IMG/VR virus record: IMGVR_UViG_2534681940_000021
From: a virus
Lineage: Duplodnaviria; Heunggongvirae; Uroviricota; Caudoviricetes
Direction: 5' to 3' (one strand)
DNA: 10,935 nucleotides
Part shown: in pieces, positions 1 to 3,000 of the stretch
Numbering within the stretch: position 1 is the first letter of the stretch
How the letters are laid out: each line of letters begins with the position of its first letter
Position numbers: made by a program

Positions 1-3000
1 GTTACCGATTCCAATTCAAGTTCGTTCAGACGATGACGAAGTGTGTGTGCTGCAATCTCCTGGATTGAAGGAGGTAAATCTTTAAATTCCATCGTCAACC
101 TCATTAGTCGGAGTTTCTTGCTAACCAGCGACGCGCGCCAGCTTCAGTTTTAAACGTTTTGCTTCTGGTATACGTCATCGCGGTAAACGTGCCGTCCAGG
201 TTGGGGAATACTCCGTATACCAGAGATTCGTTGTTGCCAAGATTGAGCGTATCCATGTTGACCTCATTTCCCCTTAACGCCGGGTAGCGGAACTGTTTGC
301 TGAGAACACCGTGCGGTGTCTTGATGGGTGGTAATTTAGTTTTCTCATGAATGTTGGTCAAGTATTTTTAATGAGAAAACTCAATATTTAATGCAAAATA
401 AAGCCAATACATTGAAATGTAAGGCTTTAAAATTTGTGAAGGGGGTTACTGATGTTTGTTACGTTTGCGAGCTTCTAGTAGCTCGGTGAATAGGCGATTA
501 AAATTCTCAACGCGGGCACGGAGTTCGCTGATTTGTGCTTGCTGCTCTGATTTTGGAAGTGCGCGATACAATCGCAACATCTCCAACTCATCTTCCGATA
601 AGTCTAAGGCGCTGTTGAGTGCAACTGGTGGATCTGGTGTTTTATCCTCGTCACCAAACAGTATCCAAGTTGGTGAACATTGCAATACCTCAGCCAGGCG
701 ATGCAAATTTTGCCCGCGCGGGGCTGTATGGTCGCTTTCCCATAGTGAAATTGATGAGCCAGATACGCCAGCGGCTTTGCTTAAATCGTTTTGACTTAAA
801 CCAACCTGTTTGCGTCTTTCTCTAATTCGTTGACCTAAAGTTTTCTCGTTCATATTTAGATATCTTAATAACCCTTGACTTGAGATTCCTTGAGTGATTG
901 CTATTGAGAAAACTCAACTTTGGAGAGGTGATGTTTAAATCAGACGTAATTAATTTTTATGGGACGAAAGCCAAAGTAGCGAAAGCTGCTGGTGTTGATC
1001 CATCTGCTGTTTCTCAATGGGGGGAACTGGTTCCTGAAGGTCGCGCGATGCGCCTGCAAGAGGCATCCGGCGGGGAACTTCAGTACGACCCCAAAGTTTA
1101 TGACGAATATCGTAAGGCAAAGCGGGCGGGGCGGTTGAACAATGAAAATCACCCCTGAACAGGTTTGTGAGGCTCTGGATGCCTGGGTATGTCGACCAGG
1201 AATGACACAGGAGCAGGCGACGATATTAATCACGGAAGCATTCTGGGCTCTGAAAGAACGCCCGAACATCGATGTTCAACGCGTCACGTTTAATGATGGC
1301 GAGGTTGATCAACGGGCGCTGGGCGTTAACCGGGTGAAGATATTCGAACGCTGGAAAGCTATCGACACCAGGGATAAGCGGGAAAAATTCACGGCGCTGA
1401 TTCCGGCAATTATGGAGGCTATCCGAATTAGTGATTTCAGGTTGTATCGTGAGATCAGTGATGGAAAAAGCATTACGTACATGATCGCCGGATTAAACAA
1501 AGAATATGGCGATGTGGTGGAGTCCGGGCTGCTTTTTGCGGATCCAGCTGTTGTGGAACGTGAGACTGACGAGCTTATAGAAAAAGCTATTGCTTTCAAG
1601 CATGCGTATCGTCAGCAATATCAATATTACTTTGCAGATAAACAAATATCTGCCAGGGGTTCGTATGAGTATCGATGCACTACGATGGGCTAAAAAGGTG
1701 AAAACCGGCAGTTCATCCAGTAAGTCTGTATTGACCTGGCTTGCTGATATGTGCGGTGCCGATTTGTGTGCATACCCGTCTGTATCTGCACTGGCAGAAG
1801 TAACGGAACTGAACAAAAAGACTGTGCAGGACAGCTTACGACACCTGATGGAGATTGGGTTAATTGTTGATACCGGTGAGAGAAAAGGCAGAACAAAGCA
1901 AATTGTGGTGTACCGACTTATCGGTGTAGAAGAAAGTGTTGCCGAGCCTGAATACACCCAAAAACGGGTGTCTTTAAAGGTGGGTAAAATTGGTGCTGTT
2001 AATAAAAACAGTACCGAAAATGGTTATGTTTCAGCACAAAAGAGCCCCAAAAACGGAACTCTTTGTTGCATGGAAAATAACCAAAGACACCCAAATTTTC
2101 CATCAAAGACACCCAAAAACGGATCACGGAACCCAAAGGAACCCAAAGATCTAAACCCCACACATAACGCACGCGAGAGTGCTCCGACCAGTGAGCAGGA
2201 AGTTTTGTCGTTACAGGCAGCCCCCCATGTATTCCTGGATGGCCTGAGCGAACCCATCGGAAAATTCCCGATGAGCGATAGCTGGTATCCGTCACGGGAT
2301 TTTCGACGACGGGCTGCGTTGTGGGGGATGGCTTTGCCGGAGACAGAATTTACACCTGCTGAACTTACCGCATTCCGGGACTACTGGGCAGCGGAGGGGA
2401 AAGTGTTTACGCAGATTCAGTGGGAGCAGAAATTCGCCCGTCACGTAAATCACGTCAGGGCGCAGGTTAAACCAGTCAGCAAAGGGGTAAACCATGCAGC
2501 AGCACCAGGTGGCACCGCATCACGGGCAGTTCAGGAAATTCGGGCAGCACGTGAGCAGTGGGAACGTGAAAACGGATTTATCAGCGACGGAAACGGCCTG
2601 GAAGCTGTGGGAACTCATGGGGGAGGTTTATTCGAACCGCTGGACCCAGAAGAACGGGGCCGCACCTTCGAAGCTCTGGATTGCACAGATTGGCGCGATG
2701 ACTGAGCAGCAAATCCGGCAGGTCTGCCGCCAGTGCATGGACCGCTGCCGGGCGGGTGAAACATGGCCTCCGGACCTGGCTGAGTTTGTGGCGCTGATTT
2801 CGGAAAGCGGGGCCAATCCATTTGGCCTGACGGTGGATGCTGTGATGGAGGAGTATCGCCGCTGGCGTAATGAGTCCTGGCGATATAACGGAAGCGACAA
2901 ATATCCGTGGCCTCAGCCTGTGCTGTATCACATTTGCCTCGAGATGCGTTCAAAGGGGATTGAACGCCAGATGACCGAAGGGGAATTAAAACGGCTTGCA

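Follow-up and report, generated by a model that had tools for sequence, protein, structure and literature searches.

An overlapping Cro-like and YdaT-family gene pair in the probable immunity region of a Qin/PPompW-type lambdoid prophage

Two described systems with which the locus considered here can be compared are the dicA-dicC-ydfX cluster of the Qin prophage and the racR-ydaS-ydaT cluster of the Rac prophage, both of Escherichia coli K-12. In K-12, DicA and DicC form a bistable switch (PMC10448788), DicA binds the operator Oc in vivo (PMC3441716) and DicC, by ChIP, occupies sites on either side of dicA (PMC11430063). For Rac, two reports (PMC5700373, PMC5700377) describe silencing or deletion of racR as lethal through ydaS/ydaT. 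The YdaS/YdaT pairs of Rac and CP-933P have since been re-interpreted, and shown experimentally, as Cro/CII analogues (PMC5917428, PMC8630535, PMC9986795, PMC11879457), and the "toxin" names that the families bear in Pfam stem from a prediction unsupported by experiments (PMC5917428, PMC8630535).

We analyzed a 10,935-nucleotide stretch of viral DNA (IMGVR_UViG_2534681940_000021; hereafter the window), for which an earlier note had cited the Rac toxicity reports, taken Rac as the counterpart and proposed that a repressor and two overlapping genes might behave as an addiction-like module. We find that positions 330-1693 are very probably the immunity/decision region of a lambdoid prophage of the Qin/PPompW type, in which the overlapping pair encodes a Cro and a CII analogue (Table 1). 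The two genes are ordinary Cro-like and CII-like switch regulators and no dedicated toxin pair; the module is already well known in kind, recurs across hundreds of E. coli genomes and involves no new principle.

Gene content of the immunity region

The two reading frames, both initiated by ATG, share 17 nt (1142-1158), as had been noted earlier, and RefSeq gives identical CDS boundaries for both genes in copies that lie 2 bases off the window over 400-1750; both are genuine genes and not chance ORFs. The 75-aa product matches the NCBIfam DicC model over its full length (NF007282, residues 1-75 of 75; 167.6 bits against a cut-off of 130, 5e-50), as well as Pfam P22_Cro (PF14549, 64 bits against 30.2, 1.1e-17) and the structure of P22 Cro (PDB 1rzs, 1.9e-12). 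The full-length match, together with its divergent placement beside a DicA-type repressor, assigns it to the DicC/P22 Cro family. Its proposed Cro-like character is thus borne out, whereas its proposed assignment to the YdaS family is not: Pfam YdaS_toxin (PF15943) scores 21.4 bits, under the gathering score of 30, and BLASTP against K-12 YdaS yields just E 2e-5 over 43 residues.

The divergently transcribed repressor matches NCBIfam DicA end to end (NF007257, residues 1-135 of 135; 238.3 bits against a cut-off of 101, 1.7e-71) and the N-terminal domain of P22 C2 (PDB 1adr, 2e-15), and its Pfam matches are HTH domains only (HTH_3). BLASTP of this protein against K-12 RacR gives no significant alignment (E above 3). 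As the Cro is of the DicC type and the repressor of the DicA type, the counterpart of the cluster is Qin dicA-dicC-ydfX and not Rac racR-ydaS-ydaT. Induction probably proceeds via an anti-repressor, and an ORF6N gene is present at 4545-5093.

The 183-aa product belongs to the YdaT family, a placement that the domain search upholds: Pfam PF06254 (YdaT_toxin) matches residues 59-131 with 25.7 bits, above its gathering score of 21, PHROG 163 is matched at 8e-42, and every homologue that we found carries PF06254. The link to characterized YdaT is weak for the single sequence (E ~0.05) and reaches 1e-3 for a profile against the PDB entries (the reference structures for the family being 8bt1 and 3c4r), whereas a subfamily profile retrieves proteins that share 41-57% identity with K-12 YdaT, at E 6e-17 to 2.6e-10. 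The N-terminus is a POU-like HTH domain (helices 5-16, 23-35, 77-97 and 99-106; recognition helix 57-70) with an unusually long α2-α3 loop (36-56) that falls within the range of 9-23 residues. It is followed by a predicted helical hairpin (111-130/135-179) and a variable tail (162-183). All 43 subfamily members compared have R70 and W71, which align with R57 and W58 of Rac YdaT; R57 is required for DNA binding, as judged from its mutation jointly with H56 (PMC11879457). The protein is indeed longer than K-12 YdaT (183 against 140 aa), the extra length coming from three parts: the longer HTH loop, an added C-terminal helix and the variable 22-aa tail.

The neighborhood is that of a complete lambdoid early region. 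On the right, the product of 1665-2705 contains the Pfam DnaT domain (2e-16), matches PHROG replication initiation families and is annotated as a CDS in RefSeq; a lambda P-like gene follows at 2494-3159. The ydaT-like gene is placed in the cII slot by virtue of this O-like initiator directly downstream. Among the loci whose neighboring genes were inspected (nine distinct related loci with genes listed, plus the window and phage mEp460), every long-form ydaT is located between a cro, of one of three families, and replication genes, divergent from an HTH repressor. On the left, the ydfA-like product matches Pfam DUF1391 (9e-28) and has a RefSeq CDS at the same position. The K-12 dicBF operon lies on the leftward side, not on the cro side. 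A Pfam search of the 183-aa protein returned no family besides YdaT_toxin at E up to 0.01; with this as its sole Pfam match, it would be an analogue of lambda CII and not a detectable homologue, the predicted relationship being one of function and position only.

Table 1. Features of the immunity region and its flanks (positions in the window)
Feature	Position	Strand	Details
ydfA-like gene (DUF1391)	104-256	-	50 aa; opens the leftward early operon, which corresponds to the dicBF operon of K-12
Leftward sigma-70-like promoter (PL/dicBp analogue)	333-361	-	-35 TTGACC (361-356), 17-nt spacer, -10 TAAATT (338-333)
Operator copy	335-348	-	ATGAGAAAACTAAA; over -10 and spacer of the leftward promoter; 2 mismatches to 904-917
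Operator copy	371-384	+	ATGAGAAAACTCAA; just upstream of the leftward -35; 1 mismatch to 904-917
DicA-type repressor	446-853	-	135 aa; N-terminal HTH like P22 C2, without peptidase/RecA-cleavage domain
Palindrome, candidate site only	853-870	.	TATTTAGATATCTTAATA; over the repressor start codon; position of K-12 "Oa"
Rightward promoter (PR/dicCp analogue)	875-904	+	-35 TTGACT (875-880), 18-nt spacer, -10 TGCTAT (899-904)
Main operator	904-917	.	TTGAGAAAACTCAA; perfect 14-bp palindrome; equivalent of K-12 Oc
Cro-like regulator (DicC/P22-Cro family)	931-1158	+	75 aa; Shine-Dalgarno GGAGAGG at 922-928
Candidate -10 of PRE-like leftward promoter	1109-1114	-	TACGAT; 21 nt beyond the box; weak -35 TCAACC (1138-1133)
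Imperfect inverted repeat (box)	1136-1151	.	TGAACAATGAAAATCA; straddles the ydaT-like start codon
Long-form YdaT-family protein, predicted CII analogue	1142-1693	+	183 aa
Replication initiator (O-like, DnaT-like domain)	1665-2705	+	begins 29 nt inside the 3' end of the ydaT-like gene

Operators, promoters and the repeat at the ydaT-like start

The pair does sit directly behind an operator, as had been proposed: the main palindrome lies between the rightward -10 and the cro Shine-Dalgarno, downstream of the TTGACT -35, and aligns column for column with K-12 Oc, TTGTTAGT..ACTAACAA. A search with the 904-917 pattern allowing up to 3 mismatches recovers 6 matches against 1.2 expected, the best three of which fall in the two promoter regions. 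The palindrome at 853-870, which spans the start codon of the repressor gene, is matched in the K-12 alignment by TTAGCTAATGCTAA, likewise palindromic, and resembles a P22-type operator; it occurs only once in the window, a search for further copies having found none, and so cannot be called the main operator. A consensus promoter scan of 300-1800 detects the leftward promoter as the sole promoter-like site; it misses the rightward one because of the G at position 2 of its -10 hexamer. The rightward promoter aligns with the K-12 dicC promoter TTGACT-17-TATCTT (PMC3441716).

This G (G900) is unique to the window, the close relatives reading TACTAT at the -10, and is one of two derived substitutions peculiar to it, the other (A926, where relatives have G926) falling in the cro Shine-Dalgarno. 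Together they constitute its sole differences from 797 related genomes over 400-1750, and both are predicted to lower expression. Such a G, at the critical position 2 of the rightward -10, is what one might cite for a non-functional, decaying remnant of a cryptic prophage with no present role, akin to K-12 ydfX, and the family does supply other such cases: the K-12 Qin copy ends after residue 93, the Shigella flexneri copy has an internal stop codon, and fragmentary homologues are many. We nevertheless regard decay as highly improbable here, as both reading frames and the operators and box are intact, dN/dS is ~0.08 against alleles with 93% protein identity, the 183-aa protein belongs to a sequence cluster of 1504 members, and ~775 complete E. 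coli genomes carry an intact module, which also occurs in the phages mEp460 and HannyBb.

The imperfect inverted repeat at the ydaT-like start is predicted to be the binding site of the 183-aa protein. Its position is that of the experimentally defined Rac YdaT-box ATGATTCATGAAAATCAA (PMC11879457). The pattern TGAWCA-N5-RATCA has one match, at the ydaT start, in 24 of the 25 loci having matches, the remaining locus (L001) bearing a second copy, a count made on the same loci from which the pattern was derived; the genome-contig scan contributed nine loci, and the variety of loci compared for the box comes mainly from look-ups of the encoding contigs. The box is kept alongside three different cro families, and its 6-nt spacing is kept where the ATG shifts by 3 nt. 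The mEp460 genome (45.8 kb) contains exactly two perfect copies, at the ydaT start and at the exo/xis junction. Since its copies lie over coding sequence, over the translation-initiation region and over the exo 3' end, conservation of the box could stem in part from inheritance or coding constraint.

Two further searches bear on this repeat. With up to 3 mismatches, the CP-933P/Rac consensus TTGATT-N6-AATCAA has 5 matches in the window against 7 expected, so that the match count is uninformative, and 1135-1152 was pursued on position. A 1-mismatch copy of the box on the minus strand inside a DUF968 gene (7945-7960) was considered as a PaQ-like site and dropped, the number of 1-mismatch matches being that expected by chance. 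The candidate PRE-like leftward promoter came from a relaxed promoter scan and matches only 7 of 12 consensus positions. Upstream of xis, the distance from box to -10 is 22 nt in L001 (TATAGT) and 21 nt in mEp460 (TATTCT); hence, each of the three sites inspected has a -10-like hexamer at 21-22 nt from the box.

Proposed circuit and consequences for the host

We propose that the DicA-type repressor binds the TTGAG-N4-CTCAA operators on both sides of its gene and would thereby silence the rightward operon (cro, the ydaT-like gene, O, P and onward) and the leftward operon from ydfA through to dicF and dicB, both of which lie beyond the window in relatives. The 75-aa Cro, with its P22-Cro fold, would shut off repressor synthesis and so create bistability, as for K-12 DicA/DicC. 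The ydaT-like gene is probably translationally coupled to cro via the overlap, and its product most likely binds the repeat over its own start codon, from where it would activate the weak leftward promoter. As this promoter would run antisense through cro into the repressor gene, it is PRE-like, and the second site in relatives, where a copy of the repeat lies beside a -10-like hexamer upstream of xis-int, is PI-like in the same sense.

Loss of the repressor would harm the host through derepression of the whole early program, which includes division inhibitors on its left side and the replication and late genes on its right; any off-target effects of Cro or YdaT would contribute secondarily at most. 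This is the point at which the addiction-like module of the earlier note has to be weighed. In that explanation, the repressor and the Cro-like and YdaT-like proteins constitute a toxin-repressor module with the killing or arrest of repressor-losing cells as its main role, and it draws on the reported lethality of racR loss, on the filamentation and death that Rac YdaT causes through rcsA (PMC11879457), on the slowed, dicBF-ydfD-independent growth of K-12 upon induction of DicC (PMC11430063) and on the two substitutions of the window, whose predicted lowering of expression would be expected were expression costly. Against this, both products are HTH transcription factors, neither of which matched any PADLOC-DB model of defence-system proteins; their genes fill the cro and cII slots within a complete lambdoid early region, and functional phages carry them. 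Moreover, the window repressor is unrelated to RacR; CP-933P YdaT is non-toxic and that pair has proved to be no toxin-antitoxin system (PMC8630535); Qin dicA deletions have been made in a dicBF-deleted background, avoiding dicBF-induced growth inhibition (PMC10448788); and lambda CII is toxic when overproduced and still a regulator (PMC5917428). We therefore consider the addiction-like module unlikely and favor the Cro/CII-like switch. Deletability of the repressor is uninformative in this respect, as any prophage carrying harmful early genes behaves alike. What survives of the toxicity claim is a residue: K-12 DicC and Rac YdaT, when overexpressed, are by themselves harmful to cells. A type II toxin-antitoxin system was rejected because both products are HTH DNA-binding proteins and match no PADLOC-DB model.

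Combining these observations, we offer a tentative reading that we rate as somewhat short of probable, namely that long-form YdaT is a distinct branch of CII analogues with a hairpin and dual boxes, and that the substitutions of the window are "lock-down" mutations. The branch would comprise uncharacterized proteins of 160-183 aa, including the truncated K-12 YdfX; in place of the single tetramerization helix there would be a Rop-like helical hairpin, possibly with a change in oligomeric state. Its members would bind TGAAC-N6-(G/A)ATCA over their own start codon and at the exo/xis copy, such that one protein would activate both PRE-like and PI-like promoters and might in addition hinder the translation or transcription of its own gene. 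The mutations in the -10 and the cro Shine-Dalgarno would have been selected and would silence the rightward operon.

The main value of the analysis is an annotation correction, from the "toxin YdaT family" of RefSeq and Pfam to a CII-like lysogeny regulator, which belongs to a very common STEC-associated prophage type. The predicted box and its xis-int copy also offer a cheap, testable model for the establishment of lysogeny by DicA/DicC-type phages.

Comparison with described systems

The K-12 Qin cluster has the same gene order and orientation as the window, a dicC/ydfX overlap that is likewise 17 nt, an operator at the Oc position and a conserved -35 in the leftward promoter (dicBp). Its proteins are 56% (DicA), 71% (DicC), 90% (YdfX, residues 1-93) and 88% (YdfA) identical to those of the window, whereas DNA identity over 330-1030 is ~55-65%. 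The immunity specificity differs: the HTH regions of repressor and Cro and all operator copies, at the rightward and leftward promoters, have diverged in concert, the operator sequences flanking the shared -35 differ, and the K-12 counterpart of the 335-348 copy has a K-12-type half-site instead. The ydaT-like gene is full length in the window, in contrast to K-12 ydfX, which stops after residue 93. In the window, dicA-dicC-ydfX has an intact counterpart, and YdfX, a "protein of unknown function", is identified as a truncated copy of the long-form YdaT regulator.

The YdaT proteins of CP-933P (PDB 8bt1) and Rac (K-12 b1358) share with the 183-aa protein PF06254 and the Arg-Trp pair of the recognition helix, as well as gene placement between cro and replication genes and an inverted repeat of TGAxx half-sites with 6-nt spacing at the cro/ydaT junction (PMC9986795, PMC11879457). 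Identity to 8bt1 is about 25-29% in a structure-based alignment. Relative to the 140-aa Rac protein, the 183-aa protein has 13 more residues before the recognition helix and 30 more after the conserved helix, and its predicted two-helix hairpin contrasts with the single tetramerization helix of CP-933P YdaT, a difference by which its oligomeric state and DNA-binding mode may also differ. The half-sites read TGAAC/TGATT in the window and TTGATT in CP-933P/Rac, and the partners are a DicC/P22-type Cro and a DicA-type repressor in place of YdaS and RacR or PaaR2.

With lambda cI-cro-cII and P22 c2-cro-c1, the window shares a divergent repressor and Cro on common operators and, immediately behind cro, a third regulator that precedes the replication genes; the likeness to P22 extends to the proteins, with the N-terminal domain of the repressor resembling P22 C2 and the Cro resembling P22 Cro. 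The predicted activator sites, at the leftward promoter of the cro/cII junction and upstream of int, correspond to those of lambda PRE and PI. However, the predicted site of the window is an inverted repeat, while that of lambda CII is a direct repeat, and the window repressor, unlike that of the lambda system, has no cleavage domain.

The phages mEp460 (LR597641.1), which carries a full set of phage genes, and HannyBb (PP925841.1) both have ~91% DNA identity to the window over 400-1624. They differ from it in the C-terminal tail of the YdaT protein, in the downstream replication module and in the expression signals (-10 TAGCAT and Shine-Dalgarno GGAGG against TGCTAT and GGAGAGG). They share with it the repressor, the operators, cro and a long-form YdaT, of 173 aa and with the 17-nt overlap, which in HannyBb is annotated as a "CII-like transcriptional activator".

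Gene content, operators and peculiar substitutions of the module

The overlap of a 75-aa and a 183-aa gene (17 nt, 1142-1158), which the earlier note had read from the sequence, withstands scrutiny: the same three CDS recur in RefSeq copies from E. coli O103:H2 12009, O157:H7 and other strains, both products have family matches, and the 183-aa gene displays a dN/dS of ~0.08 (against alleles with 93% protein identity). Hence, both are genuine genes. The 75-aa product matches the NCBIfam DicC family over its full length (5e-50), Pfam PF14549 (64 bits) and PDB 1rzs (1.9e-12), and shares 71% of its residues with K-12 DicC. 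It falls short of the YdaS_toxin threshold (21.4 bits vs 30) and is a Cro of the DicC/P22-Cro type instead of the YdaS-family protein for which it had been taken. The repressor is of the DicA type, aligning with NCBIfam NF007257 over residues 1-135 of 135 (238 bits) and sharing 56% identity with K-12 DicA; its N-terminal domain is P22 C2-like (2e-15), and its similarity to RacR is not significant. For the 183-aa product, the matches are PHROG 163, "CII-like transcriptional activator" (8e-42), and Pfam YdaT_toxin, the latter above its gathering score.

Principal features of the repressor-cro-ydaT region of the window
Feature	Position	Strand	Details
Operator copy	335-348		flanks leftward promoter
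Leftward promoter	361-333	-	TTGACC-17-TAAATT; sole consensus-like promoter in region
Operator copy	371-384		flanks leftward promoter
Repressor ORF	446-853	-	135 aa; divergent from the cro-like and ydaT-like ORFs
Palindrome TATTTAGATATCTTAATA	853-870		covers repressor start codon
Rightward promoter	875-904		TTGACT (875-880), 18-nt spacer, TGCTAT (899-904)
cro-like ORF	931-1158	+	75 aa; ATG start
ydaT-like ORF	1142-1693	+	183 aa
O-like initiator	1665-2705		DnaT-like domain; follows ydaT-like gene

A perfect palindrome, TTGAGAAAACTCAA (904-917), aligns exactly with Oc (TTGTTAGT..ACTAACAA), the K-12 operator to which DicA has been shown to bind in vivo (PMC3441716). The promoter flanked by the two further operator copies is the analogue of dicBp/PL, and the DicC sites recovered by ChIP in K-12 likewise flank dicA on both sides (PMC11430063). 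In the K-12 sequence, all these operator positions are occupied by K-12-type half-sites; the operators thus change together with the diverged HTH regions, in support of their assignment. The palindrome over the repressor start codon resembles a P22 operator. A -10-like TAAGAT (867-862, minus strand) lies 8 nt 5' of the repressor ATG; therefore, the repressor mRNA may be leaderless or almost so, a situation reported for lambda cI and CP-933P paaR2 (PMC8630535).

Over 400-1750, the closest relatives differ from the window at only two positions, where the window has G for A at 900 and A for G at 926. The former substitution falls on base 2 of the rightward -10 hexamer (TACTAT to TGCTAT) and the latter lies within the cro Shine-Dalgarno (GGAGGGG to GGAGAGG). 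Over 860-960, each of the 797 complete E. coli genomes carrying this intergenic region has at least two mismatches to the window. The outgroup variants, phage mEp460 and the related locus L026, read A at the corresponding -10 position and GGAGG, indicating that G900 and A926 are both derived; as predicted from the sequence, they should lower cro and ydaT expression.

A long form of YdaT and its predicted binding site

The 183-aa protein matches the solved YdaT structures weakly (E ~0.05 with the single sequence, 1e-3 with a profile), and a profile of its subfamily (43 members) reaches proteins 41-57% identical to K-12 YdaT (E 6e-17 to 2.6e-10). R70 and W71, located in or at the predicted recognition helix (57-70), are invariant in the subfamily alignment and pair with R57 and W58 of Rac YdaT, whose H56A/R57A mutant loses DNA binding (PMC11879457). 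These observations, among others, establish it as a YdaT family member. It is indeed longer than its 140-aa Rac counterpart in K-12, as had been remarked, with 13 of the 43 extra residues before the recognition helix and 30 after it. Its alpha2-alpha3 loop has 21 residues, within the reported family range of 9-23 (PMC9986795). At the C-terminus, the model features a helical hairpin (111-130/135-179), unlike the single tetramerisation helix of CP-933P YdaT; the final 22 residues are modeled with low confidence and are not conserved. Homologues share ~161 conserved residues followed by differing tails, yielding 165-, 173- and 183-aa forms, and E. coli, Salmonella, Citrobacter, Raoultella and Enterobacter commonly carry the long form.

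In every related locus with neighbours listed, the long-form gene lies directly 3' of a cro of the YdaS_toxin, P22_Cro or HTH_3 family (overlap 4 or 14 nt), with replication genes downstream and a divergent short HTH repressor; in the window, a lambda P-like gene is also found downstream. The O103:H2 copy is a prophage adjoining ompW, with integrase, excisionase, exonuclease, dicB and DicF to its left. Phages mEp460, which has a full phage gene set, and HannyBb, in which the ydaT-like gene is annotated as a CII-like activator, share the repressor-cro-ydaT module (91% DNA identity). The window module belongs to well-known kinds and is extremely common.

An imperfect inverted repeat, TGAACAATGAAAATCA (1136-1151), spans the ydaT-like start codon, in the same position as the experimentally defined Rac YdaT-box ATGATTCATGAAAATCAA (PMC11879457) and near that of OM, the CP-933P site located where ydaS ends (PMC9986795). 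TGAWCA-N5-RATCA, a pattern derived from the same sequences on which it was then counted, is present at the ydaT start in 25/25 loci with a match and is the sole copy in 24 of them, a second copy being found in the related locus L001; the search of the Rac locus returned no match. The box is retained with three different cro families and in differing cro reading frames, and a 3-nt shift of the ATG, seen in three loci, leaves its 6-nt spacing unchanged. The second ydaT codon encodes M, V, T or K, yet ends in G except in the E. coli type. The mEp460 genome (45.8 kb) has exactly two perfect copies, one at the ydaT start and one overlapping the exonuclease gene's end, immediately 5' of xis-int; the latter recurs in the O103 prophage. 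In loci L001 (8298-8313) and L027 (26442-26457), this second perfect copy (TGAACATTAA[A/G]AATCA) overlaps the exonuclease stop codon, ~60-65 nt 5' of the excisionase start codon, and looks like a CII-type PI promoter for xis-int. A minus-strand -10-like hexamer lies 21-22 nt past all three sites (TACGAT at 1114-1109 in the window, TATAGT in L001, TATTCT in mEp460), with a weak -35, TCAACC, in the two cases examined (window and L001), an architecture expected of activator-dependent PRE-like or PI-like promoters. The origin of the pattern and the overlap of the sites with coding regions make these no more than predicted YdaT binding sites at PRE-like and PI-like positions.

A copy with one mismatch (TGACCATGACCAATCA) occurs in L027 (37750-37765) and in the window (7945-7960, minus strand), antisense inside a DUF968 gene and 5' of rusA and a Q-like antiterminator. 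Although it might serve as a PaQ-like site, ~0.75 such one-mismatch matches are expected by chance, with at least two in 40 of 200 shuffled sequences. Downstream of the antiterminator region lies the Rfam sRNA STnc100 (10100-10274, 81.8 bits).

A probable lambdoid switch and the question of addiction

The region is best read as an ordinary lambdoid switch: both early operons would be shut by the DicA-type repressor, Cro would oppose it to generate bistability, as shown for K-12 DicA/DicC (PMC10448788), and the long-form YdaT would fill the role of a CII analogue. The earlier note had instead proposed that the repressor and the two rightward genes form an addiction-like module. That rightward expression carries a cost finds partial support, as K-12 DicC induction slows growth without requiring dicBF (PMC11430063) and Rac YdaT is toxic through rcsA (PMC11879457). 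However, YdaS and YdaT have been re-interpreted as Cro and CII analogues, and the CP-933P pair was shown not to be a toxin-antitoxin system (PMC5917428, PMC8630535, PMC9986795). Moreover, dicA was deleted in K-12 strains lacking dicBF, so that dicBF induction would not inhibit growth (PMC10448788); accordingly, lethality upon repressor loss is expected mainly from the leftward operon and prophage induction. Free deletability of the repressor, the proposed test, does not separate the switch from an addiction module. Overall, the earlier interpretation is partly supported.

Elsewhere in the window, Rfam isrK (4310-4383) and C4 antisense RNA (4409-4492) lie directly 5' of an ORF6N anti-repressor gene (4545-5093), constituting an anti-repressor cassette under antisense RNA control through which induction probably proceeds, the DicA-type repressor being non-cleavable. 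The window's real addiction-type module is a minus-strand type II toxin-antitoxin pair with an 8-nt overlap, comprising a RelE-family toxin (PF06296, 1.4e-47; 5933-6304) and an HTH antitoxin (5623-5940).

Relationship to the K-12 Qin prophage

Identity to K-12 Qin is ~84-96% over 150-330 (ydfA), ~55-65% over 330-1030 (operators, repressor and the HTH part of cro) and again ~84-96% over 1050-1400, with divergence beyond ~1400, near the ydfX truncation (residue 93); this profile is that of a classic immunity-cassette mosaic. The recombination boundary falls inside cro (~1000-1050); prophages with another type of immunity share 84-96% identity with the window across the ydaT-like gene and the C-terminal half of Cro. 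Two related loci (L010, L011) encode YdaT-like proteins 93-98% identical to that of the window behind unrelated TTAG..CTAA-type operators.

K-12 YdfX (2847-3137 of the Qin locus L003), listed as having no known function (PMC11430063), represents a long-form YdaT/CII-like regulator reduced to its N-terminal 93 residues; the truncation falls where its similarity to the window stops (~1400-1420). A Shigella flexneri copy has an internal stop codon. Recognition of YdfX as such a remnant is modestly new, as are the hitherto uncharacterised long-form branch, its predicted box, which recurs at PRE-like and PI-like positions, and the two regulatory substitutions found in this window alone. The Rac racR-ydaS-ydaT genes had been named as the counterpart of the module, a match at odds with the dissimilarity of its repressor to RacR. 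In Qin, dicC and ydfX likewise overlap by 17 nt in the same arrangement, and residues 1-93 of the window protein share 90% identity with the 96-aa YdfX. Thus, the window harbors an intact version of the Qin dicA-dicC-ydfX genes and not an orthologue of those of Rac.
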